From a candidate division CPR2 bacterium GW2011_GWC2_39_35 (GTDB lineage: Bacteria; Patescibacteriota; CPR2), in the NCBI GenBank assembly GCA_000995065.1, contig LBWX01000002.1, positions 1 through 60,585 of the forward strand: 60,585 nucleotides of DNA, in the 5' to 3' direction. The notes under the pieces are model-generated. The model was not told the origin of the DNA and ran no database searches. It saw nothing but the letters and a program-made list of their open reading frames with translations. How positions within the stretch are numbered: position 1 is the stretch's first letter; each line of letters starts with the position of its first letter. Made by a program: the position numbers and the translations under genes. Positions 3,860-50,305 of this stretch are shown here, one piece after another.

Positions 3860-4470
3860 TCAATTATAATTTGGCCGCCGCCGCCGCCGCCGCCGCCAGC
3901 CCAATTACCTCCACCATTACCACCAATAGCAGAAATATTATTAGCATTATTAACAGCGGTCTTACTAACAAGATAAACACTGCCACCGCTTCCGCCGCCG
4001 CCGCCACTACAATAAGTACCAGTACTGTTACCTCCCGCATTACCGTTAGCCAAAATATTACCATTTAATATTAAGTTTTCGGTTCGGACTTTAACTGCCC
4101 CGCCCCCGGATCCACCATTACCACCATTTTGGCCAGATGCAGCGCCACTGTCTCCTCCTCCCCCCCCGGAACCAAAAATACTGGTTGCATATCCATACGA
4201 AGAACCACCAAGAGCAACATCAGTAGTATAACAGCCAAAAGTACATCTTGTGCCGTTACCACCGCTACCCCCATAACCTCCGCCACTACCACTCCTATGA
4301 GTATGCGGCGTGGTGCCGATAGAGCCTATTCCTCCAATACCAGGACCATTACCATAACCATTTGTACCATTCGCAATACCACTACCAGGGAAAACGCCAC
4401 CATTACCGCCATTAAATCCTTTTCCCGAAGCATCAATTTTGCCTCCAACCTGTATGTCTAAAGTTCCCAT
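3860..4470 (-). repeat. Glycine-rich low-complexity segment (GGxGG runs, beta-helix-like) of the giant gene
   Basis: Translated GGNGGVFPGSG...GGNGGSGGGAVKV...NGNAGGNSTG...GGGGGSGGSVYL...GGNGGGNWAGGGGGGGGQIIIE. The antisense ORFs listed here are mirror artefacts. Confidence 0.6.
3874..3897. repeat. (GCC)8 trinucleotide microsatellite encoding Gly8 on the minus strand
   Basis: gccgccgccgccgccgccgccgcc read directly; corresponds to WAGGGGGGGGQ in ORF 709..4977. Confidence 0.9.
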
Positions 4471-5869
4471 TACTTTAAATTCGATTTTTACCCCAGATGC
4501 TGAACCAGATGGCCCATCAGTTGTTAAAATCCCTGTTCCGGTAATAGTAAAATTATTAAAATTAGGCACAGCCCCAGTTAATGGATTGTATGAACTAGCC
4601 CCGTGACCCAAATCTGTTTCATAAATTGTTTTAATAGTTTTAGAAGAAGAGAGGGTATAGTTACCATCAGCGCCAGTCCCTACATCTATACTTAAAGATT
4701 CAAGTTTCGTATCCCCCCCAGCTGTCAAATCAAGCTGGCTAGTTGTTGTCGCCGCCCCTTGGGTTGTGCCGTTCCAATCGGTTTGGGATGTAAATATCTT
4801 TGATGAAATATTCCCCGCATTATCCCTAAACCTCGCGTAAACGGTTTTTACTTCGTCGCCGGTGGGGATATTCCAATCCTGAAGCCCAACCCCATAAGCC
4901 AGCCAGCCGGGGTCTAAAATGGTGCCGTCAATATTAGTTGTCGATCCCCAATCCGTCCCGTTGTTAGAAAACTGCATCCACCTTAACGGCCGTAGCCTTG
5001 GCGTAAGTTGACGGGTTTAAACCGGTGGGGTCGGTTATGGTTATGGCCCCTCCGGACGGCGCAGTTTGCTCCACCGTAAAGTCGGTATTGTCGGCTCCGT
5101 TAAATTCCGTCCAAGTAGAAACTCTGGCAGCACTGTCTATAAGCCTTGAGCGCCACTTGTAAGTGGTGCTGGTTGGGAAATTAAGATCAAAAGTAACTTC
5201 TCCGTTTCCGCCTTCGGCGATGCCTGCATCAGTTGGACCATCATCTGTTTTACAAGCGCCATCAGTATTATATGGCGGACCACAAACAGCGTCATTCCAC
5301 ACATCAGCAGTCGGCCTTTTAAATTAGTGCCTTTAATTTTGATTTGGTTTTGATTTGTAAATCCCGTGCCCTTAGCGATAGCCGCATCATCATCCGCGCG
5401 ATGCTGGGAGATATAATTCTCCCCGCCGGAAGCCGTATCCTGAGGCGCGTCCATGGTGTTATAGGTAAGGGTTACGTTATCTAGGGTGGGCGTTGAGGTG
5501 CCGTCGGATTCCAACCGAACTAAAATTTCAAAATATTGTGCGGGAGAACTGGGCAGTCCGGATGCAGACATGGAAGTATAATGAAGCGGGGTCGGAGTAT
5601 TTTGCTGATCAGCATAAGTTTGGCCAAAATAATTATCCGTCCACGCCGTAGCAATATTGGCCACGTCAAAAGTGCCGCTCCGGCCGTAATAAGTCCAATT
5701 TGTTTTATTCGGCGAAGTCCGCACCAAAAACTTAACCGCCTCGCCCGTACTTAAAGCATTTTTAGTTGAAGTTATAGATTGAAAGTTTACATTTTCCGGA
5801 CTCGCCCCAAAATCTTTCCGCAACCCCACATCAGCAGCCCCAGTCCCGCCAAGGGAGCCGGGAGAAGTA

Positions 5870-6960
5870 AAGGTTTTACTAAGCTTTTCTACCCGCCACC
5901 GATTATTACCTAGACTGACATCATAGCCTGCTATATATAGCCCATCTCCACCCATTGCAATAGAATTGGCTTGATCAGAGCCAGTTGATGGATTGCTGGT
6001 ATATGTCCATTGGTTTTGGCCGGAGAAGTTTAACTTTTCCACTCGCCATTGGTTATTTCCTGGACTGATATCAATGCCGCCCACATAAAGACCATCGCTG
6101 CCGACGGCGATAGAGTTTGCAGAATCAAAACCGCCCGAAGGGTTACTGTTATATGTCCATTGGTTTTGGCCGGAGAAGTTTAATTTTTCCACTCGCCATC
6201 GGCTACTTCCTGAGATATCATAGCCGCCCACATAAAGACCATCGCTGCCGACGGCGATAGAGTTGGCCATATAAGCCGCAGTCGAAACATATGACCACTG
6301 GTTTTGGCCGGAGAGGTTTAACTTTTCCACCCGCCATTGTGGTGCGCCCATGAATCCACCGCCGCTACTTCCAGCTATATAAAGACCATCACTGCCAACG
6401 GCAATAGAACGCACCCCCTCATTACCCCCGTATGTTGAAGTTGTTGGGTTGTTGGTGTAAGTCCATTGGTGTTGGCCGGAGAAGTTTAGCTTTTCTACCC
6501 GCAACTGAAGATTGCCTAGGGTGCTCTGGTCGCTCCCGCCTATATAAATACCATCGCTGCCGACGGCGATTGCATAAAGAATATTTCCGCCATTGTTAGT
6601 TAAACTGTTATAAGCCCATTGTTGCTGGCCGGAAAAATTTAGTTTTTCTACCCGCCAACCAGATGAACCAACCCCACCCACATATATACCATCGCTGCCG
6701 ACGGCGATTGCGTACACTGTAGTAGAGCTAATATTATTAGTATAAGTCCACTGGTGCTGGCCGGAAAAATTTAGTTTTTCTACCCGCCACTGTGAAGCAA
6801 ATTGTCCTAACGCCTTATCAACCCCACCCACATATATACCATCGCTGCCTACAGCAACGGCAGTAGCATAATCGTCATAAGCCGTTGGATTGTTATTATA
6901 AGCAAAGGCAGCTGCTCCCGTATTACAACAAGCACCCGTTATGCCAACACTGCCGGCTGC
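5870..6960 (-). repeat. About nine tandem ~47-50 aa coding repeats, probably beta-propeller blades, inside the giant gene
   Basis: Recurrent peptide ...AIAVGSDG(I/L)YVGG...(Q/R)WRVEKLNFSGQxQWTY..., with a recurrent DNA word accatcgctgccgacggcgat at roughly 140-150 bp spacing. Confidence 0.7.
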
Positions 6961-7339
6961 TTGTATCTCCAAATTAGTCCGCGGATTCGTCTCCCAATCC
7001 GCATGACCGTCCGTTCCGCCGCTAACCGCATTATAATCAAAATCCGCCTGCGCGTCCCACGCAACAGTATGACTCCCCGCCTCCGCCATCCTCGGCTTGC
7101 CGGAAAAGTTAAAAGGGGAAATAAATTGCAGGGCCATAAAGGCTACAAAAGAAATACAAAAAGCATAAACAGAAGCTTTGTTTATAGAATGAGCGTAGGG
7201 CTTGGAATAGTATTTGTAGTAAGTTCTTTTCTTTTGAAAGGCATTATCGTGAAGTTTTCTAAATCTAATATGCAAAAAATACCGAATCTCCATAAAAAAC
7301 AACCGACCCAAATTCCAACGATAAACAATCCCCTTAAAA

Positions 7340-7373
7340 GGGTCTAACCCTTTTCTGGAGGGTTCGACCCTCC
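7340..7373. repeat. REP-like imperfect hairpin (GGGTCTAACCC / GGGTTCGACCC)
   Basis: Half-sites at 7340-7350 and 7361-7370 pair at 10/11 positions. Same word family as the hairpins flanking the RAYT gene. Lies just upstream of the preferred start of the giant gene. Confidence 0.6.
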
Positions 7374-7513
7374 CTGCGGGTTTACCAAATATCTTGTTAA
7401 ATATTTTTTTTATCATATCCCTTTGCACGCTCTTAATATCAACATTAACTCTATTCTATTGTATCCAAACAACCCTCGCCCCGCAAGCCCTTTTTAAAAA
7501 ATCCCAATACTCA

Positions 7514-7553
7514 AAAAGGGTTAGACCCTCCGGATGGAGGGTCTAACCCTTTT
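7514..7553. repeat. REP hairpin, perfect 18-bp arms
   Basis: AAAAGGGTTAGACCCTCC-GGAT-GGAGGGTCTAACCCTTTT, 4 nt from the stop of the RAYT gene. Confidence 0.85.
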
Positions 7554-7557
7554 CAAC

Positions 7558-8214
7558 TTAATCGATAGAAATATCCCCAATAATCATTTTGATATCTACT
7601 TTATCGGAAGCCATAAAATCAAAATAATTGCGATATGCCTTATTTTCATTATGACTAAGCATCTCCAAAATGAAATCAGTATTAAGCCAATTTGTCTTTC
7701 TTTTACCTAGGTAATCGTGAAGGCTTGAATAATCATAAGACGAAGCCTTGAGATCTAGATCTTTGGGATTTAAGTGAATATACCTTGAAACATGCAATAG
7801 GTACTCATCCGCTAAAACCGGAGCCGCCTTGTATGTACCTTGAAACAGAGAACCGACTCTATCATGGCGCTTATTAAAATACATGACGTAATTCGTAAGC
7901 AGTCCTCGCATAAATTCCGAAAGACCTTCGTCTCCTGTCTGACGAACCAACAGATGAAAATGGTTAGGCATCAAACAAAAGCAAAGCAGCTCAACCTCTC
8001 CATAAAACCTCCCCTTTTGAAGGGTCGAACCCTCCAGAAAAGGGTTAGACCCTTTTTCGGCATCTTCTTTTTTTAGGAGGTACATTTTTAAAATATAGAG
8101 GAACACCTTGTAATCTTTATCGTCAAGAAAAATATCCCTTTTTTCAACCCCGCGGTTAAAGATATGATAAGCTCCATTTTGTTCGAAGTTTTTAATCTTG
8201 TATTTAGCCGGCAT
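7558..8214 (-). CDS. IS200/Y1-type REP-associated tyrosine transposase (RAYT)
   Basis: HUH motif in LMPNHFHLLV and catalytic-Tyr region SRYIHLNP. N-terminus YHIFNRG is typical of the family. Flanked on both sides by REP hairpins. Confidence 0.8.
   Translation of the reverse strand: MPAKYKIKNFEQNGAYHIFNRGVEKRDIFLDDKDYKVFLYILKMYLLKKEDAEKGSNPFLEGSTLQKGRFYGEVELLCFCLMPNHFHLLVRQTGDEGLSEFMRGLLTNYVMYFNKRHDRVGSLFQGTYKAAPVLADEYLLHVSRYIHLNPKDLDLKASSYDYSSLHDYLGKRKTNWLNTDFILEMLSHNENKAYRNYFDFMASDKVDIKMIIGDISID
8019..8056. repeat. REP-like hairpin inside the RAYT coding sequence, in frame
   Basis: GAAGGGTCGAACCCTCC-AGAA-AAGGGTTAGACCCTTT with arms one mismatch from complementary. Encodes ...GSNPFLEGSTLQKGRF... 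just upstream of the HUH motif. Confidence 0.6.
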
Positions 8215-8254: not shown

Positions 8255-8292
8255 AAAGGGTCTAACCCTCCTACAGGAGGGTTAGACCCTTT
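8255..8292. repeat. REP hairpin, perfect 17-bp arms, opposite arm order to 7514-7553
   Basis: AAAGGGTCTAACCCTCC-TACA-GGAGGGTTAGACCCTTT, 41 nt upstream of the RAYT start. Confidence 0.85.
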
Positions 8293-21886: not shown

Positions 21887-22007
21887 CGTAACTTAACTTT
21901 TCCTTCCAATTAGTAAAGGCTTTTAAAGAAGAAAAAGTTGAAGAATTGGCTTACTTTCATTACCGATATGATAGCATATTGATAGAGATTTGTTAAGGGG
22001 CTTTAAG

Positions 22008-22132
22008 GTAACTGTTCACAACCCCCTCGTCACTCAGAGGAGTTCAGACGACGAAACAATCTCTTTTCGGTTCCAGACAGAGATCGCCACGCTCATTTCA
22101 TTCGCTCGCGATGACAGTTGTGAGCAGTTACG
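22008..22132. repeat. About 125-nt palindromic element of the GTCA...CAATCTC / GAGAT.GCC...TGAC family, enclosed by a 14-bp outer stem
   Basis: GTAACTGTTCACAA (22008-22021) pairs with TTGTGAGCAGTTAC (22119-22132), with one G.T. The core aligns with 50225-50305. Confidence 0.7.
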
Positions 22133-27058: not shown

Positions 27059-27322
27059 ATAGAGAGGTACATAAAATACCTCCTGTAGTCGATCCCATTA
27101 TTACCTTTTCCATTTTTCCCTAAAAAACTCTTCTGAACTTAAAAGCCAATTATAAAAGTGCGTTTTGTAAGTGTGTAGTTAACCACTTATTTAAACGTAG
27201 ACCCCAAAAAAATTCACGCCCAAATTGAAGATGACTATTCATAACCCTAAGCGATCCCACCCCAAAAAACCTTTTTTTCGAACCTAGACACTCTAAATTA
27301 TAAGCAGTCGCAACAAAAAGCC

Positions 27323-27351
27323 TTGATTTTTATTAAGCTTATGGTTATACT
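27323..27351 (+). promoter_or_regulatory. Sigma70-like promoter TTGATT-17 nt-TATACT
   Basis: -35 at 27323-27328 and -10 at 27346-27351. The predicted start at about 27357 coincides with the 5' end of the structured region. Confidence 0.5.
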
Positions 27352-27356
27352 ACTTG

Positions 27357-27718
27357 GCGGCAGACGTGGTAGGCGAAACTTTTCACTACATATGGGGTAC
27401 AAAGGGTTTTATCGGATCAAAAGGTAATGCACCCTCTCGCCACATTCTATTTCTTTGTTTCGATATCTAAGTGACAACAGTCATTTGGCTAAACAAAGAA
27501 GTAGTACACGAGAGACAATTACCCAAACCAACAAAGCCGTCTAAGACTGCAACAGATTAGACGGCTTGCACTGATAGAACCACCCCCACGTCTGCACCAA
27601 AATTCCGGCCATGTTAGAAACATGTTAATCCGGCAAGGATTAACAAGGAAAGAATGGTGGTTTATAGATTAGTAAGGCATAATTGCCTCACTTGCAACTC
27701 ACCACCCTTCTTTCTTTT
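27357..27718 (+). ncRNA. Unclassified ~360-nt structured RNA candidate with its own promoter and intrinsic terminator
   Basis: Closing helix GCAGACGTGG (27360-69) / CCACGTCTGC (27586-95). Nested helices: 27423-28/27518-23, 27434-39/27509-14, 27453-60/27491-98, 27534-44/27557-67. Terminator GAAAGAATGGTGG...CCACCCTTCTTTC-TTTT at 27648-27718. No ORF of 60 aa or more on either strand. Confidence 0.5.
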
Positions 27719-27804
27719 AAAAACTAACCTCTGGCCTTTATTTTTTAAAAAACTGATGAAGAAACCAGACAAAAAAATTTACAAACTTTACAACAGACTA
27801 TCCC

Positions 27805-27848
27805 TTACTTAACAATATTTAAACGATCGTTTAAATATTGTTAAGTAA
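27805..27848. repeat. Perfect 44-bp palindrome with no loop
   Basis: TTACTTAACAATATTTAAACGA|TCGTTTAAATATTGTTAAGTAA; the halves are exact reverse complements. Confidence 0.95.
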
Positions 27849-27858
27849 TTTATCCGAC

Positions 27859-28083
27859 TTAGGATATCACTGCTTTTTCGATCCTTTTCACGTTTATTTT
27901 ACGAGGCGTAATTTTAAGTAGAATTAAGGCAGATGCAGCTCCAAGAACCGACAGAAGAGAAAAGGCTTCCTCATTTCCAAAAGTTTGCGCCAAAATTCCC
28001 GCAACCATCGGTCCAACTATGTACCCGACGTTAAAAGCCGAATCCTCAATCTCCTTTGAGATAACCGTAAGAACTAAAATAGA
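27859..28083 (-). pseudogene. C-terminal stump of a transporter gene (MFS-like last two helices), lacking its 5' part
   Basis: Open 74-codon frame ...SAFNVGYIVGPMVAGILAQTFGNEEAFSLLSVLGAASALILLKITPRK...* preceded by an in-frame TAA. No plausible start or upstream continuation. Confidence 0.4.
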
Positions 28084-28155
28084 TTAAATCATTACTGTTA
28101 AGCGTTGTGTAGTATAAACTCGAATAAAAAAGACGAAGCTATAAAAAATTTGAAT

Positions 28156-28185
28156 AAAGAGGGGATTGGGGCGAATCCCCTCTTT
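28156..28185 (-). terminator. Rho-independent terminator of the 28194..28658 gene
   Basis: AAAGAGGGGATT-GGGGCG-AATCCCCTCTTT 8 nt past the stop, followed on the minus strand by ATTCAAATTTTTT. Confidence 0.7.
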
Positions 28186-28193
28186 ATCTTTTC

Positions 28194-33226: not shown

Positions 33227-34339
33227 TTATGCCATGAACCTCAAAAAAGCCCCGATACCACCCTCTCTTTTTAGATCTTCGCTATTGGTAAATTCCACAA
33301 CACCTTCATCCTCTAAAGCCTTTTCGATGATGACTTCATCAAGATGAATTTCTTTTACGGCCCTACTGCCACAGCTACAAGGAATCTGCATCTCATAACT
33401 GTCGCACAAAGAACATAGGTAACCCTCTGCTTTAAAATCCTCACTCACTATAAGCATCCCAACTTCCTTTTTATTTAGAGCCTTTAACATCTCCTTTAAA
33501 CCAAGAACCGCTTTTTTATGTTTCTTGGCGGTTGTTATCAGATTTTTAGCGTCAACCTCCTCGCTATGCTTCACTTTTCTATTTAAAAAATCATTTGTCT
33601 TCTCTTCGATCAAGTTAACATTACTTCTAATATACAATTCATCCGTACCAATTACTTTTTCTTTTAAAGACTTGGGAAGAAGGTTTAAAAAATTTTCCGT
33701 TAAATCATGATGGCCAAAGATTACCCAATCATTTTTATTATAATAATTATAAATTTTCTTCATTTTACTTGTCGCCGTCTTAAAATGCCACAAGATATGA
33801 TCCTCCACATGTCGCTCCCATTTCATCTGTGACCAACCGCCTCTTTTAATTCTTCCCGGCACATCGCTTTGAATCTCATTTCGAAAGATTATCTCTCCTA
33901 AGGTGTAATCAAAAAATTTGGCTTTTTTAGAATCAATTAGAAGAATGTTAACATCGGGGTGCTTTAAAGCCACCTCTTCCAGATAGGAAATGTAAGGATG
34001 CTTGGCAAAAATAAGCCTTGTCTCCACCGGAATCTTTAGTTCAAACTTCTTGATGTCCGAATCGAATCCCATAATAAACACGCCTCGATCCGACGCGGGC
34101 AAATTTTCGAACTCCCGCCAAAAATTCTCCCTGAATTTTGTGTAATTTTCTCTGGTCTCGCCATGCTTCGGCAAAGATTTAGCAATTTTCTGGAAGGATT
34201 TCCTGATAAATGCATTATCCTTTACATTTTGATTAAGGTCGCGGTGGTTGGTATTTAGATAGAGGTTAATAAATATATTCCCTTTGGGGACTTTTTCAAC
34301 AATCTCTTTTATTTCTTTTAAGATCTCTTCTTGGCTCAT
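33227..34339 (-). CDS. Bacterial eRF1/Pelota/Vms1-like (VLRF1/baeRF-type) release-factor homologue with zinc-ribbon insert
   Basis: RGGWSQMKWERH parallels the eRF1 GGQ / Vms1 GxxQ loop (RGGQSALRFARL). C-terminus EGGIGAFLRF matches eRF1/Pelota domain 3 (GGIAAILRY). Insert CSLCDSYEMQIPCSCGS. The start lies somewhere in 34339-34378. Confidence 0.65.
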   Translation of the reverse strand: MSQEEILKEIKEIVEKVPKGNIFINLYLNTNHRDLNQNVKDNAFIRKSFQKIAKSLPKHGETRENYTKFRENFWREFENLPASDRGVFIMGFDSDIKKFELKIPVETRLIFAKHPYISYLEEVALKHPDVNILLIDSKKAKFFDYTLGEIIFRNEIQSDVPGRIKRGGWSQMKWERHVEDHILWHFKTATSKMKKIYNYYNKNDWVIFGHHDLTENFLNLLPKSLKEKVIGTDELYIRSNVNLIEEKTNDFLNRKVKHSEEVDAKNLITTAKKHKKAVLGLKEMLKALNKKEVGMLIVSEDFKAEGYLCSLCDSYEMQIPCSCGSRAVKEIHLDEVIIEKALEDEGVVEFTNSEDLKREGGIGAFLRFMA

Positions 34340-34656
34340 CTTTTCTTCCTCGCCTTTCCCATCCATTTCCCAAACCAAAAACGGTTCTTTAGGTTATCCT
34401 TTTCTTCCGTAAGATGAATATATTTTCCTAACTTTCTCCTTAGAAGCACAATTCGATGCCATGGCGTTTGCAAATCACTCATACTAAAATAATACCTTCT
34501 TAAGGATTAATTGTATTCGTTCAGGGTGGCAAAATATTTTGACTTTTATATCTAAACTTCCTAAATCCCCTTACCTAGTTTTTAGATAATCATATTTTTT
34601 TACATTCTTAGAACATCAAATTACAAGTCGCTCTTCTACAAAAAAATTCCCTTCCT

Positions 34657-37139: not shown

Positions 37140-37817
37140 ATGAGAATTTTAGTAGTTGAAGATGATATAAAAATAGCCAATGCCCTAAAAAAAGGTTTGG
37201 AGCAAGAATCCTGGGCCGTCGATTTGGAATTTGAGGGTGATGACGGATTGGGTGCCGCCCTTACCATCGACTACGATCTAATGATTCTGGATAGAATGCT
37301 TCCCGGCTCCGTAGACGGCATGAGCATTTGTGAGACTCTAAGAGAAAAAGGGGTAAAGACGCCCATCCTGATGCTGACCGCCAAAGATAAGATAGAAGAT
37401 CGGGTTTTCGGCCTTAATTGCGGCGCAGATGATTATCTGGTAAAACCCTTTGCTTTTGAGGAGTTAGTAGCCCGAATAAAAGCCCTCCTTAGAAGACCAG
37501 AAAATAATGTCGGCACGGTTTTAAAGATTGGCGACTTGAGCCTTAATGCTATTAATCATAAAGTGGAGAGATCGGGGAAAGAAATCATCCTTTCTCCTAC
37601 CGAGTTTAGCCTTTTAGAATATCTCATGTTAAATGAAGGGCAAATATTAACCAAAGAAAGTATAATAGGTCATGTCTGGGATTTTGACGCTGATGTTTTA
37701 CCAAACACCGTTGAAGTTTATATCGGCTACCTAAGAAATAAAATCGACAAACCTTTTAAAAAACCAACCCTAATTAATACAGTTAGAGGATTTGGTTATA
37801 AAATAGGACCCAATTAA
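37140..37817 (+). CDS. OmpR-family response regulator
   Basis: Receiver domain (DLMILDRMLPG, LMLTAKD) plus winged-helix output (VRGFGYKI). Confidence 0.9.
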   Translation: MRILVVEDDIKIANALKKGLEQESWAVDLEFEGDDGLGAALTIDYDLMILDRMLPGSVDGMSICETLREKGVKTPILMLTAKDKIEDRVFGLNCGADDYLVKPFAFEELVARIKALLRRPENNVGTVLKIGDLSLNAINHKVERSGKEIILSPTEFSLLEYLMLNEGQILTKESIIGHVWDFDADVLPNTVEVYIGYLRNKIDKPFKKPTLINTVRGFGYKIGPN

Positions 37818-38840
37818 ATGTCATTTAAGCGAGCTTATCTTAAATTAACCCTTTTTTATATCGTCATTGCGATGCTTATTAGCATATTTTTCAGTGTAGT
37901 TCTGTATAGAATTTCCGCAACGGAACTAAACACAGGCTCCATAAGACAAGGAAAGGTTATGCGGGAACTAACGAATGGTAAAAATATGCCGAGGACACTT
38001 GCTGAGCTAGAGAAAATGCGCTTAGATCAACTAGAAGAAAGTAATGATAGGCTCAAAATAGATCTCATCTATTTTAATCTTGTTATCCTGATCCTTTCCG
38101 GTGGAGCCAGCTATTTGCTCGCCAGAAGAACTCTAAAACCGATAGAAGAAATGGTAGATGTCCAGAATCGCTTTACGACTGATGCCTCCCACGAGCTACG
38201 TACTCCGCTTACGGCTATGAAAACTGAAATCGAAGTAAGCCTAAGAGACAAAAAATTTAATCTCGAAGGAGCTAAAGATTTATTACAAAGTAATTTGGAA
38301 GAAATCTCTAAACTTGAAACCCTCTCAAAGGGCCTGCTTTCTTTAGCTCAATATGAAGACCAAACAAAGGTCCCTTTTTCTAAAGTTTCTTTATCCAAAA
38401 TAATAGAGGATGCCTATAAAAAAATAGAAAGCCTATCTAAAAAGAAAGAAATCGAAATTGAGTTTGACGTAAACGATTTTTTTGTAAGCGGCATTTCGCA
38501 AAGCCTAACCGAGCTCATGGTAATTTTGATGGATAACGCCATAAAATACAGCCCTAACAGGTCTAAAATATTTGTCTCTACAAGCCTCGTCGGAAAACAT
38601 GCCGTTATTAAAGTAAAAGATGAGGGTATCGGCATCAAAGCTTCTGATCAACCTCACATCTTTGACCGCTTTTATAGGGCAGATCTATCTCGTACCAAAA
38701 ATAATGCCAGCGGTTATGGTCTAGGACTTTCGATCGCTAAAAAAATCTTGGATATTCACAAAGGAAAAGTCGAAGTAGACAGCACTCCTGGAAAAGGCAC
38801 CACTTTTATTATAAAACTCCCACTTCAACCTAACCCCTAA
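37818..38840 (+). CDS. Sensor histidine kinase (HisKA + HATPase_c)
   Basis: H-box FTTDASHELRTPLT. N, G1 and G2 boxes: DNAIKY, DEGIGI, GYGLGLSIAK. Confidence 0.9.
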   Translation: MSFKRAYLKLTLFYIVIAMLISIFFSVVLYRISATELNTGSIRQGKVMRELTNGKNMPRTLAELEKMRLDQLEESNDRLKIDLIYFNLVILILSGGASYLLARRTLKPIEEMVDVQNRFTTDASHELRTPLTAMKTEIEVSLRDKKFNLEGAKDLLQSNLEEISKLETLSKGLLSLAQYEDQTKVPFSKVSLSKIIEDAYKKIESLSKKKEIEIEFDVNDFFVSGISQSLTELMVILMDNAIKYSPNRSKIFVSTSLVGKHAVIKVKDEGIGIKASDQPHIFDRFYRADLSRTKNNASGYGLGLSIAKKILDIHKGKVEVDSTPGKGTTFIIKLPLQPNP

Positions 38841-38886
38841 ATTCTTTATCTACTACAATAGTATAGAAAATCTGATGATTATTAAG

Positions 38887-38908
38887 GATTCTTTAAGCAA
38901 TTTCTCAG
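38887..38908 (+). promoter_or_regulatory. Conserved 22-nt box GATTCTTTAAGCAATTTCTCAG upstream of the small secreted protein gene
   Basis: 15/15 identity (TAAGCAATTTCTCAG) with 39489-39503. Confidence 0.5.
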
Positions 38909-38957
38909 AAAACTGCGATAAACTGTGATCATTCCAATAAAGAAAGGGGGTGAAAAA

Positions 38958-39422
38958 ATGAAAAATGATAATTCTAAACGACTTATTGCCAGTTTAGCAA
39001 TCGCAACTGTCCTAGTTGGAGCTGGAGCCATAGCAGCCGGCAATATATTGGCAGCTACCACTAACAAGACAGTGTCTGATAGGCTTTCCGAAAAGCTCGG
39101 TATCGACAAAACTAAGGTTAACACAGCCTTTGATCAGATCCACTCAGAAAGACAAGAAGAAATGAAGACTGAAATGAGCTCTAAATTGGATAAGGCGGCG
39201 ACAGACGGCGTTATTACGAGCGACCAGAAGCAACAGATCTTAGACAAACACATTGAGCTTCAAAAGCAGCGCGAAGAACAAAGAACAGCCATGGAGAAAT
39301 GGAGAACCGAGAGCGGTATCGACTTTGATAAGCTAAGCGAATATGGTATTGGCGGCTTTGGAAAAGGAATGGGAATGGGCGGTCCGAGAGGCGGACATGG
39401 CGGCATGGGAATGATGAGATAA
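38958..39422 (+). CDS. Secreted small protein with helical repeats and a Gly/Met-rich tail
   Basis: ATG 38958 after AAAGGGGG. Signal-like LIASLAIATVLVGAGAIAAG. Tail GGFGKGMGMGGPRGGHGGMGMMR. Confidence 0.5.
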   Translation: MKNDNSKRLIASLAIATVLVGAGAIAAGNILAATTNKTVSDRLSEKLGIDKTKVNTAFDQIHSERQEEMKTEMSSKLDKAATDGVITSDQKQQILDKHIELQKQREEQRTAMEKWRTESGIDFDKLSEYGIGGFGKGMGMGGPRGGHGGMGMMR

Positions 39423-39482
39423 TTACAATTAAATACACAAATTTTTTAAAACAGTCTCTAAGGGGGGGCTGTTTTAAAAATT

Positions 39483-39503
39483 GATTTCTAAGCAATTTCT
39501 CAG
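39483..39503 (+). promoter_or_regulatory. Second copy of the GATTTCTAAGCAATTTCTCAG box, upstream of the ABC permease gene
   Basis: See 38887-38908. Confidence 0.5.
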
Positions 39504-39543
39504 TTTTTTAATATATTCTTTAAGACAGTAATAAAGGAGAATC

Positions 39544-41184
39544 ATGTTTTATTTACAGTACTTAAAAGCCGAACTCCTAAGGCGTTGGAGCAAAACACTA
39601 ACTATTTCTCTTGGCCTTGCCATTGCCGGCGCAATAATTATCGCCATCATTTCTGTCTCCCAGAGTTTATCTACGGCTCAAAAGACCGTTTTAAACCCGT
39701 TAGAAAACGTGGGTACGGATGTGATGGTCTCTAGATCGGTAGGAGCCGAGGGAGCCAGGCAGCTCGACGAAGCCACCAGGACCGAGTTTCTCGCCGACAA
39801 CAAAATAGAAACTGATCTTTCTAAATACGGTAATCCCGGCGATCAGTTTTCTCATGACAATTTCTTAAGCGGCAGCATGCTTACGTTTGCGGATACCGAA
39901 ACCAAAAAAATTGACGCGAACCTTATAAAGGACTATGCTTCCGGACTTATCTTAAGCGTCACCCATCAGGAGGGTAAAATTCCCAAAGTAACCGCCGAGT
40001 TCGAAACCGGTGGGGACAAAATTCAGATTAATAGAGCCATCGAGCCTATGACCGACACCGAAAGAGCCGCAGCTGATGCCGCCAGGCAAAACGCTGAAGC
40101 CGATTTAAAGGCAAAAGGCATTGATCCCAGATCGGAAGAAGGACGCAAAGCGGTTCATGATGCTTCGGATGCTGTTATTCCAGAAAGATTTAAGAATTTT
40201 AAAATGGAATATACCACCGAAAGAAAAACATATTCCCAAGATATCGGACCAATCGCTACCGACATTAAAACCGAAAATTTTACCGTTGCCGGAGTAGATA
40301 CTTCCAAACCTAACATCGGACTTATTTTACCTGATCAAATTGTGAATGGTCAGTATTTTAACGGTGCCGATCAAATTGTGGTAAATAGATCTTATGCCGA
40401 CAAGAAAAGTCTTCAAACCGACGGCAAACTGTCTCTTGGAGGCAAGGAGTTTACGGTTATCGGTATTGTCGAACCGAAATTATACACTAATACAGCCGAT
40501 CTCTATCTTCCATTATCAGATTTGCAAAAACTGGCCGGAAAAGATAGTCGAATTAATGTTCTATTACTTAAATCAACCAATTCCTATTCCGTTGAAGAAG
40601 CCAGTAAAAAGATAGCCGAACTTTTTCCGGGCGCTAAAGTTACCAACTCTTCCGACACCGCCGCGCAAGTTTCCGGATCTTTAGTATCAGCCGCTAATCT
40701 CACAAACAAATTTATCGGAATAACAAGCATCATTGTAGTCATCGCTTCTTTTATCATTGTAAGCCTTCTTACAGTTTTATCGGTTAATAAGAGGGTGCGA
40801 GAAATTGGCACCCTAAAAGCTATCGGCTGGAGTAACACTTCGGTTATCAGACAAATTCTTTTGGAAAATACGATGCTTGGAATCTTAGGAGCCATTATTG
40901 GCATCGGTTTTGGCTTGAGCATCATTGTTATCTTAAACCGATTTGGAATTTCTCTTTCGGCAACTATCGCTAGCATGAGTTCTGAGGGAGGCCTTATGAG
41001 ACGCTTTGCCGGTAATGCCACAAATAACCTCACAACCTCGGTGGAACTAAAAGTCGCTATTAACTACTTGATTTTACTCTTGGGGGCCGGTGTTGCCATA
41101 ATTGGGTCGATTCTAGCCGGCGGCTTAGCCGCCTTTAAAGCGTCTCGCATGAAACCTCAAGAAGCCTTAAGAAATTTGGAATAA
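39544..41184 (+). CDS. FtsX/MacB-type ABC transporter permease with large extracytoplasmic domain
   Basis: N-terminal TM helix, roughly 330-aa loop, then three C-terminal helices with the FtsX-like REIGTLKAIGW motif. Confidence 0.75.
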   Translation: MFYLQYLKAELLRRWSKTLTISLGLAIAGAIIIAIISVSQSLSTAQKTVLNPLENVGTDVMVSRSVGAEGARQLDEATRTEFLADNKIETDLSKYGNPGDQFSHDNFLSGSMLTFADTETKKIDANLIKDYASGLILSVTHQEGKIPKVTAEFETGGDKIQINRAIEPMTDTERAAADAARQNAEADLKAKGIDPRSEEGRKAVHDASDAVIPERFKNFKMEYTTERKTYSQDIGPIATDIKTENFTVAGVDTSKPNIGLILPDQIVNGQYFNGADQIVVNRSYADKKSLQTDGKLSLGGKEFTVIGIVEPKLYTNTADLYLPLSDLQKLAGKDSRINVLLLKSTNSYSVEEASKKIAELFPGAKVTNSSDTAAQVSGSLVSAANLTNKFIGITSIIVVIASFIIVSLLTVLSVNKRVREIGTLKAIGWSNTSVIRQILLENTMLGILGAIIGIGFGLSIIVILNRFGISLSATIASMSSEGGLMRRFAGNATNNLTTSVELKVAINYLILLLGAGVAIIGSILAGGLAAFKASRMKPQEALRNLE

Positions 41185-41193
41185 GGAGACAAA

Positions 41194-41880
41194 ATGAAAA
41201 TTATCGAAATAAAAAACCTCATGAAACAATACAAGCAAGGCACTAAAACCATCAGTGCTGTGAATGATATAAGTATTGATGTCAAAAAAGGCGACTTTTT
41301 GGTCATTATTGGGCCTTCCGGCAGCGGTAAAAGCACGCTTTTACAGCTTATTGGCGGCCTGGATAAACCCACTAAGGGAGAATTAAAGATCGAAAACGAA
41401 GATCTCGCCAAAATGTGCGATAAGAAAATAACGAATTTAAGACAAAAAAAGATCGGTTTTATTTTTCAAAGCTTTAATCTAATCCCAACTTTAACCGCAA
41501 AACAAAACGTGGAAGCCGCCATTGCCGAAAGATCAAAACAAGATACCGAAAAGACTCGGGAAGCTCTTAAAAGAGTGGGTCTTTTAGAAAGAGAGGGCCA
41601 TTTGCCGAGTCTTCTTTCCGGCGGCGAACAACAGCGAGTGGCTATTGCCAGAGCTCTCATCAATAAACCACAAATCATCTTAGCTGACGAACCGACAGGC
41701 AACTTAGATACCAAAACCGGAGAAGAAATCTTAGACATCCTGGAAGAGTTAAATAAAAATGGCGAAACCATCATCCTTATTACTCACTCCGAATACGCAA
41801 AAAAGTATGCTACCAGAATCGTGGAGATAAGAGATGGTAAAATTAGCGAATCGGCTAAATCTAAAGCGCCTCTAAACTAA
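41194..41880 (+). CDS. ABC transporter ATP-binding protein (MacB/LolD class)
   Basis: Walker [10 protein letters not shown], signature [15 protein letters not shown], Walker [12 protein letters not shown]. Confidence 0.9.
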
Positions 41881-42151
41881 CTACTGCGAACTGATCTCCT
41901 TCTTCTTTTCTAACCCGTTTAAAAAATTCGCACTTCTTACAACAGCCAATTTTTTTGGCGATCGTTCCCTCAGCTTGACCCTTACAGAGAGTACCGCTTA
42001 AGGCCCAACAAGCGCGACCGCCATATTTGCCTCCGTTAGTTCCATTAGTAACAATATCAATAGCGGCATAACAAACGCCGTATTCGTCAATTTTATTGCC
42101 ACTTGGCTGCCTGCCACATTTATGGAATTCCCAACAATTGGCTTTATCCAT
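41861..42151 (-). CDS. Small Cys-rich protein with a two-CW-like domain
   Basis: NCWEFHKCGR...GRACWALSGTLC...CCKKCEFF with eight Cys in 96 aa. SD GGAGGG upstream. 3' end overlaps the ABC ATPase gene by 20 nt, in convergent orientation. Confidence 0.5.
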   Translation of the reverse strand: MDKANCWEFHKCGRQPSGNKIDEYGVCYAAIDIVTNGTNGGKYGGRACWALSGTLCKGQAEGTIAKKIGCCKKCEFFKRVRKEEGDQFAVVSLEAL

Positions 42152-42421
42152 AATCCCTCCTGTATTTACCTAACTTTAGGTTACAGCAAAAAGATTAACG
42201 AAAGATAAAGATAAGGCCCTAGCTTAAATAATAATCCTTCCTAAAGTAGCAAAAGCATTTTTCATTGTTATGTCCTAATTGCATTCGGCAACAAATTTTA
42301 AAACCAAAAAATGATCCCTTAACGTCTCGAGGATCACTTTTCCTCCCAAATAAATCATCTTAATGATTTGCTTGGGAGGGAGCCGGAATTTTTAAACTCT
42401 GGGGGAGTTCTATAATCCGGC

Positions 42422-42844
42422 TTAGTCTGAATACAACTTACATTTTGCGTTGTCAGATTGCAATGCGTTGAAATTTGGGGCTTGAAGAATTACTTCAAGA
42501 AAGAGCATAAGAAGATCCAAAAGCCCACGGCTTTTCTCGAAATAGTTTAGGCTGTGACATTTTAAGATATCGTCTCCTCTTTGCTGTAAGGAAGACACGA
42601 TGCCTTTTAGTCGTTTTGGTTCTAAGTCCGAGATAAGAAGAAGCTGCGGGATGAGTTGAGCTAAATCCTTCTCTACTCCTAAGAGAATTAGATTGTCGCC
42701 GCTCTTTTTAAAGTACGCATAATCTTTGACTACTTGATCTAGAAGATCAGGATCAAATACCAACGGTGCTTCCCGATCCAGGCTTCTTAAAATATCTTGA
42801 GGGAACCTCCAGCCTTTTTTTGACACGCCTTCTATTTTTTTCAT
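42422..42844 (-). CDS. Hypothetical protein
   Basis: Intact ORF. Preferred start is MKKIEG at 42844. No motif recognised. Confidence 0.4.
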   Translation of the reverse strand: MKKIEGVSKKGWRFPQDILRSLDREAPLVFDPDLLDQVVKDYAYFKKSGDNLILLGVEKDLAQLIPQLLLISDLEPKRLKGIVSSLQQRGDDILKCHSLNYFEKSRGLLDLLMLFLEVILQAPNFNALQSDNAKCKLYSD

Positions 42845-43048
42845 AACTAACCTTTCTCTTCTAACGTCATCAAAACAGGGACAATAGAGTATGCCAAAAC
42901 TGTCGTTTAAGAAAGCAGCAATAAGAATCATTAATCAAGACTTGAACAGCAACATAGCGCTTTATGATTGTATTAAGGTACCTTGGCCACGAATTATAAT
43001 ATAAAATCGATAACATGTAAAGAAAAGTGGGGAAGAGGAAGGATGGTA

Positions 43049-43078
43049 AAGGGTCGAATTTCTAAGCATTCGACCCTT
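43049..43078. repeat. Hairpin AAGGGTCGAAT-loop-ATTCGACCCTT, related in word content to the REP family; possible terminator of the GT2 gene
   Basis: Perfect 11-bp arms, 33 nt downstream of the GT2 stop. Confidence 0.5.
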
Positions 43079-43110
43079 GCCTTCACTTAACCTTGTCTTT
43101 CGTATCTAAT

Positions 43111-43929
43111 TTATGCTGACTTTCGATAGTTTAGCCGTTTACGATTCTTAATAGCCCAGGCTATGCCTCCTATTATTTCCCGATACATTTTCATCCTGTA
43201 TCGAAATCCGCGAGCAAACTGCTCAAAACGTTTTCGAGCCCAAGCGGCATCGTCTTTGCCAACATCAGCTTTCTGTTCCTTTAAGAGCTGGCTAACACCG
43301 GAAAAAGTTACAATTCTAGTTCGGATGCCGTTTATCAGACAACAAGCTGTAATGGCAATCTCAATCCCGAAATTTGAAACATCAATCTTTTCAAACATCG
43401 CTTCCACATCTTTTCTGTAAAACGCTCTTGTACCGGAAAGGATTGGAAACATAAAGTTCGCAATCTTAGTAAAGCTTAGTCCAGGCCGAAAAATTCCGAC
43501 GACCATTATTCCCGGTCTTAGACCGTAGAGGAGCCCTAAAATATGATCTAATTTGAGGTTTAAAAGATCAGCGTCAAGAAAAATGATGATCTCCCCTCTT
43601 GAGGCTTCAACTCCCGTTTTTAGGGCTTGGCCCTTACCGTAATTTGAAAGATGATAAACCATCCTGGCCCCTGGAAGCTCGGGAAGGCGCCTAACCGAAC
43701 CGTCGCAAACTACAATCACTTCAAGGACGTAAGGCGCTAGCACATCAACAATCTTTTGAATAACTTGGGGAATTTCGTTGTAGGCAGGAATTATGACGGA
43801 AACCTTGGGAAGCAAAGCCCTGCTTTTTCCATAAGCATGTTTCTCTTTAGCTTTCTCTGCCTTCATAATTAGCTTGGTTATTGCAATCACAACGATCAAA
43901 GCCATAAGGCTTGCTACTAAAATCTCCAT
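43111..43929 (-). CDS. Family 2 glycosyltransferase, membrane-anchored
   Basis: VSVIIPAYNE and FLDADL (DxD) motifs. N-terminal TM helix. SD AAAAGGAG. Confidence 0.75.
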   Translation of the reverse strand: MEILVASLMALIVVIAITKLIMKAEKAKEKHAYGKSRALLPKVSVIIPAYNEIPQVIQKIVDVLAPYVLEVIVVCDGSVRRLPELPGARMVYHLSNYGKGQALKTGVEASRGEIIIFLDADLLNLKLDHILGLLYGLRPGIMVVGIFRPGLSFTKIANFMFPILSGTRAFYRKDVEAMFEKIDVSNFGIEIAITACCLINGIRTRIVTFSGVSQLLKEQKADVGKDDAAWARKRFEQFARGFRYRMKMYREIIGGIAWAIKNRKRLNYRKSA

Positions 43930-44091
43930 CTGACTCCTAAACTCCTTTTATCCGGTTTGCAGATATTCTTATTTTAACAGTAACGGACCCCTGCCGGCTA
44001 TTATTAAATAACGCTTTTCCCCCTACGACAACATTAACGCACAAATTTAGCCACAGATTGCGATAAAGAAATTTTACCCCAATAAATGGGA

Positions 44092-44433
44092 AAGCTCACA
44101 CATTCAATAATCGAAAGGTGAGCTTATAGGCTCAGATAATTCCACCCAGGTGATGATTATCTGTTAGTTTGCGGTTGGTGAACCGGTATGATAGCGTTGG
44201 ACGCGATATCATGGGTTGGTTCACCAACTTGCTTGAGGTGGCACATGTTCTCAGATCCGAAGATCTGCTAACATCCGGGCGGATCCAATATTAATCTAAA
44301 GGATCAGGTTGTTGGCTGGATCCGCCGCTAAGGAGGGTTGCACGCGCAACCGAGCCTACCGAGGGTAGGCATTTATATAATCTAGCGATTGTCGGGAATA
44401 AAGGTGCTTTAATGCTCTAATCGTACGATTAGA
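44092..44433 (-). ncRNA. Hairpin-dense structured region: a candidate long 5' leader of the GT2 gene or an independent ncRNA
   Basis: Eight perfect stems in plus-strand coordinates: 44092-99/44118-25; 44134-40/44156-62; 44174-84/44218-28; 44252-67; 44278-86/44318-26; 44336-51; 44354-70; 44416-33. On the minus strand one loop reads UUCG. No ORF of 60 aa or more. Confidence 0.45.
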
Positions 44434-44496
44434 CTTACAAAAACGCCCAACATGTTTACCGCTAGGATAAAGTACTAACCAAAACTGCGTATCGAG

Positions 44497-44525
44497 AGTT
44501 TACCACATCTTCTCAAAAAAGTCAA
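44497..44525 (-). promoter_or_regulatory. Sigma70-like promoter TTGACT-17 nt-TAAACT on the minus strand
   Basis: -35 at 44525-44520 and -10 at 44502-44497. Would start a transcript at about 44490 that runs through the structured region toward the GT2 gene. Confidence 0.4.
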
Positions 44526-44653
44526 TACTAAATCCGGGGAGCCCGCAACCGCCACCCTTAGCTGATTAAATGAGTAAGACGACATTTGTTTGAAGCTGAA
44601 GTAAAATTGCTTTACTGTCTGAACTTTTCTAAGTGATGCGGGATTACCAATAG

Positions 44654-44884
44654 TTACCTATCCATATCCCTGTCAGAATCTCTAAAGTATTTCCGAAATG
44701 CCCATCTTTTGTAACGCCTAGCCTTAGTGAAGGCAAGCAAAATGTAGGCCCCGACTAATATTAAAAGAAGTGGCCATAAAATATCTAAAAAACTAACCGG
44801 AAGAGTAATTAGATTTAAGTTTGCCAGAAGATAGATCAGGCCGATAATAAGAAGGGCTGTGCCAATTAACATATTTGACTCCAC
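44654..44884 (-). CDS. Small two/three-helix membrane protein with basic tail
   Basis: LIGTALLIIGLIYLLANL...ILWPLLLILVGAYILLAF then KARRYKRWAFRKYFR. Confidence 0.45.
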   Translation of the reverse strand: MESNMLIGTALLIIGLIYLLANLNLITLPVSFLDILWPLLLILVGAYILLAFTKARRYKRWAFRKYFRDSDRDMDR

Positions 44885-45066
44885 TAATTAATAAACTTAA
44901 ACTTATCTTAAGAAACTGGCAAGAGATTTTCATTGTCTAAACAAACAAACCTATAGCACTCTAAAAAATAATAAACCGTTTTAGTACGCATTTGATAAAT
45001 ATTTACTTCTGGTAAATAACTAATAAATTCCTTAACCCCTAACTTTATGATAAAATTAAGCCTGAA

Positions 45067-48625: not shown

Positions 48626-49552
48626 ATGCCCCAAGAATTAAAATTACTAACTTACGATAATTTTTCCGAACATCCGCAAGTATTAAATGCTATTACCACA
48701 AGGAAGGGCGGAGTGAGTAAAGGTGTTTATCATTCTTTAAATCTTGCTCTTCATGTTGGCGATAGCTATGGAATGGTTGTTAGAAACCGGGAAATACTAA
48801 GCGATGACCTGGGTATTGATCCCAAATCCCTTACTCTTGGAGAACAAATACATGGTTCTAATGTGTTTATCGTAAAAGAAGAAGACAAAGGCCGCGGCGC
48901 ATTAGGCCTCGAAGGCGCCATTAAGGGAGCGGACTCTCTTATAACAAACCTTCCCAACATACCTCTCGTTGTTTTAGTAGCCGATTGCGCCGCAGTGTCC
49001 TTATACGACCCCATAAAAAAAGTTGCTGCTATTGCACATGCCGGCTGGCGAGGCGCCTCCCAAAGAATCGTTTCTAAGACCACATTGAAGATGGTCGAAG
49101 ATTTCGGTTCTAAACCGTCAGATATAATTGTTGGCGTCAGTCCCGCAATCGGCCCCAGCCGGTTAGAAGTAGGCAAAGAGGTTTATAAAGAATTTAAAAA
49201 AAGTTATGGCCCCGACGTCCATCGGTTCTTTGCTGAAAGCTCCCTAATACGTCATTCTGAACTTGCCTGCCCGTCCGAAGCGCAGCGAAGTAGGGTTTCA
49301 GAATCCCATTCGGACTGGATTCCCGCCGCCGCGGGAATGACAGAAAAGGGAAATTCTGAAGAGAAGTATTATTTAAACCTTTGGTTAGCAATAGAGCATC
49401 AACTTATAAACACCGGGGTTTTAAAAGAAAACATCGAAATAATGGCGCATTGTACTGCTTGTGATACCGATAACTTTTATTCCCACCGCGCAGAACATGG
49501 CAAAACCGGCCGTTTTGCCGGCCTTGTCATGATTAAAGAGCAAATCCTTTAA
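48626..49552 (+). CDS. pgeF: YfiH/PgeF-family (laccase-domain) protein carrying an in-frame palindromic-element insertion
   Basis: ADCAAVSLYD, AHAGWRG, CTACDTDNFYSHR motifs. An extra segment SSLIRHSELACPSEAQRSRVSESHSDWIPAAAGMTEKG sits between conserved blocks. Confidence 0.75.
   Translation: MPQELKLLTYDNFSEHPQVLNAITTRKGGVSKGVYHSLNLALHVGDSYGMVVRNREILSDDLGIDPKSLTLGEQIHGSNVFIVKEEDKGRGALGLEGAIKGADSLITNLPNIPLVVLVADCAAVSLYDPIKKVAAIAHAGWRGASQRIVSKTTLKMVEDFGSKPSDIIVGVSPAIGPSRLEVGKEVYKEFKKSYGPDVHRFFAESSLIRHSELACPSEAQRSRVSESHSDWIPAAAGMTEKGNSEEKYYLNLWLAIEHQLINTGVLKENIEIMAHCTACDTDNFYSHRAEHGKTGRFAGLVMIKEQIL
49251..49341. repeat. About 91-nt double-hairpin palindromic element inside pgeF
   Basis: GTCATTCTGAAC...GTTTCAGAATC and GGATTCCCGC-CGCC-GCGGGAATGAC. 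The termini CGTCATTC...GAATGACAG resemble the 22008 and 50225 elements. Confidence 0.65.
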
Positions 49553-49555
49553 AAA

Positions 49556-49585
49556 GGGTTAGACCCTTTTTAAAGGATTGAACCC
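49556..49585. repeat. Degenerate REP copy between the convergent pgeF and pyrE genes
   Basis: AAAAAGGGTTAGACCCTTTTT followed by decayed partner GGATTGAACCC. Confidence 0.5.
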
Positions 49586-50205: not shown

Positions 50206-50224
50206 TTTTCTCCTTATAATTAAC

Positions 50225-50305
50225 GTCATTGCGAAGAGTGAAACGATGAAGCAATCTCATCCGTTATTCAAGAGATTGCCGCGCTCTCCGTTCGCTCTTA
50301 GTGAC
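50225..50305. repeat. About 81-nt palindromic element, same family as 22008-22132, at the pyrB/pyrE junction
   Basis: GTCATTGCGAAGAGTGAAACGATGAAGCAATCTC-loop-GAGATTGCCGCGCTCTCCGTTCGCTCTTAGTGAC. Confidence 0.7.

Follow-up and report, generated by a model that had tools for sequence, protein, structure and literature searches.

What is encoded, if anything, in the 724-nt gap (positions 43930-44653) that separates two minus-strand genes, one for a small membrane protein and one for a family 2 glycosyltransferase (GT2), in the candidate division CPR2 bacterium GW2011_GWC2_39_35? The window considered here is the whole 60,585-nt stretch (positions 1 to 60,585) of contig LBWX01000002.1, assembly GCA_000995065.1, from a groundwater population of the Patescibacteria, or candidate phyla radiation (CPR). 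A preliminary description had proposed that the gap holds a hairpin-dense leader or non-coding RNA (ncRNA) upstream of the GT2 gene. The gap does contain a cluster of hairpins whose structure is real, which is present in single copy and is enriched in GC; promoter-like and Shine-Dalgarno (SD) sequences are present as well, and there is no good terminator. The explanation that accounts best for these observations, tentative and somewhat short of probable, is that the gap represents a structured non-coding region, single copy and restricted to its lineage, which serves as an orphan 5' leader of about 560 nt for the GT2 operon, the hairpins acting generically on mRNA stability or compaction and possibly masking the SD at long range. 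From the sequence, we infer transcription, its strand, the status as a leader and any regulatory effect.

The structure clearly exceeds chance. On the minus strand, the minimum free energy (MFE) of 44060-44500 is -149.7 kcal/mol, compared with -107.5 +/- 5.4 in dinucleotide shuffles, so that the structure z-score (z) reaches -7.8 (-5.1 on the plus strand). Perfect stems of at least 8 bp number five, where 0.72 +/- 0.87 are expected, and none of 1000 shuffles reached that count. The gap is also the GC-richest long intergenic region of the window, at 0.43 overall and 0.46 in the cluster; other intergenic regions of at least 200 nt lie at 0.28-0.39, with one exception at 0.44. Elevated GC in an AT-rich genome is the usual signature of a structured RNA. 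The gap had been described as free of open reading frames (ORFs) of 60 aa or more, and its longest ORF on either strand has 41 aa. A pseudogene remnant in 43930-44653 is rejected on this count (no ORF exceeds 41 aa), and a leader peptide is rejected because the short ORFs of the gap lack an SD.

All eight perfect stem-loops reported earlier within 44092-44433 are present. They comprise inverted repeats of 11 bp (44174-44184/44218-44228), 10 bp (44278-44287/44317-44326), 8 bp (44133-44140/44156-44163 and 44092-44099/44118-44125) and 7 bp (44354-44360/44364-44370), an 18-bp palindrome (44416-44433) and two 6-bp stems (44336-44351 and 44252-44267). In the fold, the cluster consists of about nine stable hairpin modules arranged in series over 44075-44465. 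The features of the gap are as follows, ordered along the minus strand, with energies in kcal/mol.

44541-44659, minus: decayed member of a dispersed palindromic repeat family (MITE- or RPE-like), overlapping the stop codon of the small membrane-protein gene
44497-44525, minus: promoter-like site TTGACT-17-TAAACT with a TG extended -10 (TGgTAAACT); a consensus match only, with a putative start near 44490
44382-44465, minus: domain 1, helices 44465-44458/44389-44382 and 44452-44446/44396-44390 enclosing H1; pair probabilities 0.98-0.99 in the full-leader fold
44416-44433, minus: H1, UCUAAUC-GUAC-GAUUAGA, hairpin inside domain 1
44354-44370, minus: H2, 7-bp perfect stem with a CUC loop; -11.4 minus, -11.7 plus
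44336-44351, minus: H3, 6-bp perfect stem with a GCGU loop, from the fold
44329-44336, minus: CCUCCUUA, anti-SD-like stretch between H3 and H4, with CUCCU (44335-44331) as the predicted partner of AGGAG (43938-43934)
44278-44326, minus: H4, 10-11-bp perfect stem GGCGGAUCCA/UGGAUCCGCC with an A/C-rich loop of 27-29 nt; -21.3 minus, -24.2 plus
44245-44274, minus: H5, AUGUU-AG-CAGAUC-UUCG-GAUCUG-AG-AACAU, capped by a cUUCGg tetraloop and interrupted by a tandem A/G internal loop; -13.6 minus, -10.3 plus
44174-44228, minus: H6, 11-bp perfect outer stem with inner stems of 6 bp and 4 bp; -25.2 minus, -29.7 plus
44133-44163, minus: H7, 8-bp perfect stem with an inner 4-bp stem, from the fold
44119-44134, minus: alternative 5-bp helix overlapping H8; -5.8
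44092-44125, minus: H8, 8-bp stem; -14.0 minus, -12.8 plus
44063-44091, minus: H9, weak hairpin with a stem of 4-5 bp (CCCA...UGGG), after which comes the U-rich UAAAAUUUCUUUAU; from the sequence, the sole terminator-like element of the gap
43930-44062, minus: linker of about 130 nt without significant structure (z = -0.48 for 43925-44070), with two SD-like sites

The UUCG tetraloop of the preliminary description is confirmed as a cUUCGg within 44252-44267, and H5, to which it belongs, is the clearest RNA-like feature of the minus strand. The earlier statement that all stems are perfect and free of G.U pairs applies to the main local stems and fails for domain 1, whose longer-range helices hold two G.U pairs, one each, on the minus strand in the full-leader fold. 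Domain 1 has an energy of -26.8 kcal/mol on the minus strand versus -19.3 on the plus strand, and H8, too, is the stabler on the minus strand (-14.0 versus -12.8). Together with the promoter-like site, domain 1, H5 and H8 speak for an RNA of the minus strand.

Could each hairpin be a copy of a genome-wide family, so that the gap is a cluster of dispersed repeats of the REP/BIME or MITE type? The preliminary description had considered this, and the genome does have such families, namely the AAAAGGGTTAGACCCTTTT palindrome and the repeat at 44541-44659/22006-22130/50224-50305. However, no hairpin of the cluster has a second copy in the window. Among the contigs of two whole metagenome runs, in which the genome is covered at 25-36x, 43900-44700 matches only its home contig at 80% likeness or more, as does 44170-44330 among the contigs of metagenome run X1; copies of less than 80% identity outside the window would be missed by this check. 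The positive control, a REP-like palindrome of 40 nt (7512-7553), matched six records over lengths down to 19 nt. Self matches were likewise all that was returned by nhmmer with the RNA region against 0.52 Mb of relatives and by a covariance model of H4-H7 against 0.65 Mb, so that some 0.6 Mb of related genomes yielded no further copy. The cluster thus occurs once and is no REP-like repeat cluster: for 44075-44465, the multiple copies that mark REP, BIME and MITE repeats are absent, and an origin from dispersed repeats is largely refuted and very unlikely. Dispersed copies of the hairpins, which the preliminary description had named as a refutation of its proposal, therefore do not count against it.

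The first ~120 nt of the gap (44541-44659) are, by sequence comparison, distinct from the hairpin cluster and represent a decayed dispersed palindromic repeat. With nhmmer this segment matches 22006-22130 of the window (E=1.8e-7), and a hidden Markov model of these two copies also finds 50224-50305 (E=0.0036) and positions 2238-2320 of the relative L042 (E=2.4e-4). The segment thus has what is expected of a dispersed repeat, multiple diverged copies and terminal inverted repeats, the latter being 15-17 bp long in the copy at 22006-22130. Several independent public assemblies begin, end or show an N-gap in this 5' repeat, at 44580-44651 (loci L003, L005, L006, L073, L077 and L078), and three of the few population variants fall in it: single-nucleotide polymorphisms at 44629 and 44646 and a 2-nt indel at 44650-51. 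The family as a whole, ~85-125 nt long with terminal inverted repeats, comprises 22006-22130, 44541-44659 and 50224-50305, as well as 2238-2320 and 2730-2827 of L042, where both copies are inserted in frame within murF and translated as ...SVIARSQTTKQS...ARND.... The ends of an element were also sought in an inverted repeat of 14 nt at long range (44064-44077/44601-44614), an idea that was rejected; one arm lies inside the other repeat, and the match is probably chance. A second family, the REP-like palindrome AAAAGGGTTAGACCCTTTT, stands at gene ends (950-979, 7336-7355, 7514-7553, 8038-8057, 8255-8292 and 49543-49579), sometimes as 17-18-bp double palindromes, and is multi-copy in metagenome contigs (6 records); it probably acts as a bidirectional terminator.

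How would the cluster be transcribed? The promoter-like TTGACT-17-TAAACT noted earlier at 44525-44497 is found, with the TG of an extended -10 in addition, and an identical hexamer pair precedes the abhydrolase-murF-ddl operon (44875-44903, plus strand). The terminator scan gives weak sites only, at 44466-44446 and 44134-44119 on the minus strand and at 44354-44370 on the plus strand, a yield near shuffle expectation. The main hairpins lack the A-tract and U-tract flanks that distinguish the evident terminators of the genome, such as 28154-28187, 43049-43078 and 49543-49579, and none of the large hairpins of the gap shows a GC-rich stem followed directly by a U-tract. With an extended -10 promoter that is plausible and nothing ahead of the GT2 start that convinces as a terminator, it is reasonable to read the region as a long leader or ncRNA of the minus strand. 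In this respect the preliminary description holds up, the region being non-coding, highly structured, plausibly promoted and without a convincing terminator, whereas its suggestion of a riboswitch platform is unsupported, as set out below.

As a leader, the region would work as follows. Starting from the extended -10 site (44525-44497), transcription of the minus strand would produce a GT2 leader of ~560 nt, in which the roughly nine hairpin modules (44075-44465) would fold successively during RNA synthesis. The hairpins would neither terminate transcription nor directly cover the ribosome-binding site; their effect would be generic, without ligand sensing, and would consist in a compact, nuclease-resistant 5' end of the mRNA. 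Two SD-like sites stand before the GT2 AUG (AAGGAG 43947-43942 and AGGAG 43938-43934). In the 591-nt full-leader fold, CUCCU (44335-44331) is predicted to pair with the AGGAG at 43938-43934 and CUUUAUC (44472-44466) with GAUGGAG over the GT2 start codon, each with P ~0.5. It is possible that these two stretches are brought beside the SD and the AUG, damping GT2 translation.

Alternatively, the promoter at 44525-44497 may drive a stand-alone, trans-acting ncRNA of ~420 nt that ends at 44063-44091 and serves as a multi-hairpin scaffold or protein sponge, GT2 being transcribed separately. Such an RNA would begin at the same promoter-like site and would make use of the sole terminator-like element, H9 with UAAAAUUUCUUUAU, at the 3' end of the cluster; no structure is seen in the 130 nt from H9 to the GT2 start (z = -0.5), the length and high GC of the region fit as well, and the motifs CACCU, CAACC and CCAAC occur four times each (p ~1e-4 to 5e-4, before multiple-test correction). 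However, the H9 stem has 4-5 bp only and, together with UAAAAUUUCUUUAU, fails the terminator scan, while the promoter scan finds no separate GT2 promoter in 43930-44062. Read from the fold, none of the terminal loops (GUAC, CUC, GCGU, UUCG, UCCAA, UGG) contains the GGA typical of CsrB/RsmZ sponges, and the RNA has neither homologues nor an Rfam match. A separate ncRNA is thus improbable.

A riboswitch, or another leader sensing a ligand or a tRNA, had been suggested by two helices near the 3' end that compete for the same segment, a layout likened to an expression platform. The location in the 5' region of a gene and the strong structure would suit this, and the two helices are mutually exclusive, 44119-44134 overlapping 44092-44125. 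The alternative helix, however, reaches only -5.8 kcal/mol versus -14.0, and there is no terminator/antiterminator or SD-masking logic, because neither helix precedes a U-tract and the SD is ~150 nt further downstream; the pair at 44092-44134 would neither make or break a terminator nor mask the SD. The hairpins are independent and strung in series instead of forming a junction-organised aptamer. The preliminary description could match the core to no known riboswitch or housekeeping RNA, and the Rfam scan bears this out: across the entire window, cmscan with Rfam 15 returned no match that reached the gathering score, and in 43800-44800 a threshold of E<=10 added only a spurious match to a long ncRNA. 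ARAGORN finds no tRNA or tmRNA, and between Rfam and ARAGORN there is no match to OLE, ROOL, GOLLD, HEARO, raiA, RNase P, tmRNA, SRP or 6S. The nearest GT2 homologues, moreover, are preceded by gaps of ~10-13 nt, with no leader. A sensing leader is therefore very unlikely.

Other candidates were tried and rejected. A decayed tRNA cluster is contradicted by the lack of a match to tRNA models and by stems that are too long; an integron attC array is contradicted by perfect stems and the absence, by eye, of R-box motifs; a T-box leader has a GGGUGG stretch in its favour, yet no Rfam T-box match; and oriC or parS would be at odds with the lack of a skew change and with palindromes that all differ from one another. 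A literature search on structured RNAs of the CPR and on the repeat motif found nothing relevant.

How widely is the locus shared? The hairpin cluster is identical in all 8 public copies, which belong to one groundwater population with a locus divergence of at most 0.07%, and exact-protein look-ups of the GT2 and the small transmembrane protein lead to the same population only. A search of genome contigs with the GT2 found no relatives. Its nearest protein homologues are 37% identical and stand in a Firmicute-like context, with ispG upstream and polC or rimP downstream. Viral contigs searched with the GT2 and with an unannotated 169-aa protein of the neighbourhood (hyp169), and phages and plasmids searched by 'distant' blastn, gave nothing, and a metagenome scan with the abhydrolase had a best match of 54% identity.

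Among relatives found through MurF (at most 59% identity), the order abhydrolase-murF-ddl is kept, and the genes for the small transmembrane protein, GT2, hyp169 and two-CW protein are absent. The structured gaps beside the abhydrolase gene in these relatives are tRNA genes: one to three lie just upstream of abhydrolase-murF-ddl in seven loci (L014, L016, L017, L026, L027, L031 and L054). The 60-kb window lacks tRNA genes altogether and carries the block of small transmembrane protein, gap and GT2 at that position instead, which suggests that a rearrangement or insertion may have taken place at a former tRNA site. In a relative (L036), the segment 1770-2277 downstream of a 16S rRNA end holds a group I intron (Rfam RF00028, 84.5 bits, 1888-2122) between tRNA-model matches at 1770-1843 and 2204-2277.

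Is a functional leader needed to explain the cluster? Several observations weigh against it. No homologue occurs in the genome, metagenome and viral collections searched, and hence there is no covariation. The three metatranscriptomes that exist for the site (SOLiD, 2-3 Mb) give no coverage of the locus. Promoter-like matches are no commoner than in shuffles (6 found, 4.3 expected), and the predicted anti-SD pairing, at best suggestive in this fold, could easily be chance, CUCCU not being improbable within a 560-nt leader. Watson-Crick pairing is perfect in the main local stems, an unusual state for an RNA of some age; the total MFE is the same on both strands (-149.7 and -149.5 kcal/mol), and the plus strand gives the stabler fold for H4, H6 and H7. 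Selection at the RNA level is thus not demonstrated, because the strands have equal MFE and individual hairpins favour different strands; signals at the RNA and the DNA level conflict, and those of strand are mixed. Finally, hairpin-dense intergenic regions are common here and in relatives, so that the structure may reflect a genome-wide tendency with no function tied to GT2.

These observations feed the main rival explanation, which is unlikely on balance although it comes nearest to the leader: palindromes at the DNA level without specific RNA function, arisen as inverted duplications in a slack, recently rearranged spacer, for example through template switching in replication or repair, and which would be tolerated and transcribed only incidentally. 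The preliminary description had already cautioned that perfect stems would also fit young DNA palindromes, and the caveat is valid in view of the strand comparison above. The decayed mobile palindromic repeat lies in the same gap, and the region is evolutionarily young, as the block of small transmembrane protein, gap, GT2, hyp169 and two-CW protein is absent from relatives, which have tRNA genes there. Successive hairpins occur likewise in other intergenic regions: z is -4 or lower on at least one strand in 8 of the 15 intergenic segments tested, segments at 27391 and 7371-7481 equal the cluster in their number of perfect stems, and relatives have strings of hairpins that are not tRNAs (L035 3166-3464, z = -9.4; L056 8576-8874, z = -8.1). 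The gap 27059-28193, moreover, holds a probable gene remnant, so the genome seems to keep decaying DNA. On the other hand, neutral events would hardly produce nine different adjacent palindromes, several of which have nested stems and internal loops that are asymmetric, and the enrichment in GC over other intergenic regions suggests selection. The G.U pairs of domain 1 function on one strand only, and the cUUCGg tetraloop with its tandem A/G is an RNA-type motif. Small CPR genomes also generally lose useless DNA.

A further hairpin-dense spacer lies inside the 1135-nt gap 27059-28193. Here 27300-27860 forms a second orphan region of long-range nested helices, even more structured than the first (MFE -186 kcal/mol; z = -12.75 plus, -7.4 minus), with a GC of 0.43 and unpaired bases that are 50% A on the plus strand. 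Neither Rfam at E<=10 nor nhmmer against relatives gives a match for it, and it is a candidate plus-strand ncRNA. Beside it, the ORF fragment 27859-28050 on the minus strand (MVAGILAQTFGNEEAFSLLSVLGAASALILLKITPRKI...) resembles by eye the C-terminus of an MFS-type transporter whose remaining coding sequence is absent, which suggests a gene remnant and the retention of decaying DNA; a 20-bp perfect palindrome (27805-27848) follows the fragment.

A bolder version of a functional RNA is that the cluster (~44065-44490, minus) represents a new class of large multi-hairpin RNA of a poorly sampled Patescibacteria lineage, either a scaffold or sponge RNA or a leader sensing an envelope-related signal for the GT2/two-CW/LiaF-like block. 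We regard this as doubtful; were it true, 27300-27860 would point to a wider set of undescribed structured RNAs. RNA-based regulation in the CPR is, to our knowledge, almost unexplored, and a functional RNA here would be among very few candidate regulatory RNAs of these bacteria, placed among envelope-related genes, which encode the GT2, a LiaF-like protein, a MacB-type ABC transporter and a two-component system. Wider in reach, and better supported, is the observation that strong, near-perfect hairpins often crowd the long intergenic regions of these small genomes. For annotation, this means that single-sequence folding will flag many 'ncRNA candidates', and it raises the question of why the genomes keep such regions. 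In practice, the cluster offers a target for future metatranscriptomes of the aquifer community.

The envelope-related neighbourhood around the gap spans 37140-44884 and includes hyp169 together with the GT2, two-CW and LiaI/LiaF-like genes. Its annotated members are listed here.

37140-38840: OmpR-type response regulator and histidine kinase
39544-41880: MacB/FtsX-type ABC transporter
41861-42151: two-CW domain protein (NF045718, E=3e-27)
43111-43929, minus: GT2 glycosyltransferase, 272 aa, with an N-terminal transmembrane helix (Pfam PF00535, E=8.5e-16)
44654-44884, minus: small membrane protein, 72-76 aa, with a LiaI/LiaF-like transmembrane domain (Pfam PF18917, E=6e-8; PF22570, E=7e-7)

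The LiaI/LiaF-like gene is annotated at 72 aa in public assemblies. The sequence of the window recurs in GCA_000995385.1 and GCA_001771115.1, and also in several assemblies from ENA, JGI and Logan, all from one study. Elsewhere in the window, a single protein (33227-34378, minus) combines a baeRF family 10 (bacterial archaeo-eukaryotic release-factor-like) domain with an L7Ae domain, and in positions 1-7000 the minus strand carries ORFs of very great length (1423 and 764 aa), which contain tandem repeats of ~150-165 nt and have a GC of 0.47-0.50, above the rest of the window.

Which known systems does the cluster resemble? Like riboswitch and T-box leaders, it lies in a putative 5' leader and has alternative helices; unlike them, it has no aptamer-model match and no terminator or SD-sequestering logic, and its hairpins are serial, with no junction. 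With OLE, ROOL, GOLLD, HEARO and raiA it shares a length of several hundred nt, many helices and the character of a GC-rich outlier in an AT-rich genome, but it has no Rfam match and no evident conserved long-range architecture or pseudoknots, and is confined to a single population. The CsrB/RsmZ sponge small RNAs are similar in their independent hairpins in series and in an RNA of ~400 nt, and differ in that the terminal loops of the cluster carry no repeated GGA-type motif and a partner protein is only hypothetical. The enterobacterial REP/BIME and the Rickettsia RPE elements also form intergenic strings of stable, near-perfect palindromes, and the RPE comparison extends to the 5' 120 nt of the gap, which belong to a dispersed palindromic family with members in-frame inside a relative's murF; the hairpins of the main cluster, however, are all different and single copy in the window and the metagenome, and so lack the multi-copy property.

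The comparison that fits a generic GT2 leader is with bacterial mRNAs of the ompA, aprE and ermC type, which are stabilised by 5'-terminal stem-loops. The gap here is far longer, with about nine hairpins and no homologues, and a stabilising effect is only proposed. As in those mRNAs, however, the gap lies between a promoter-like site and a gene start, with stable hairpins near the 5' end, no terminator and the SD outside the hairpins.

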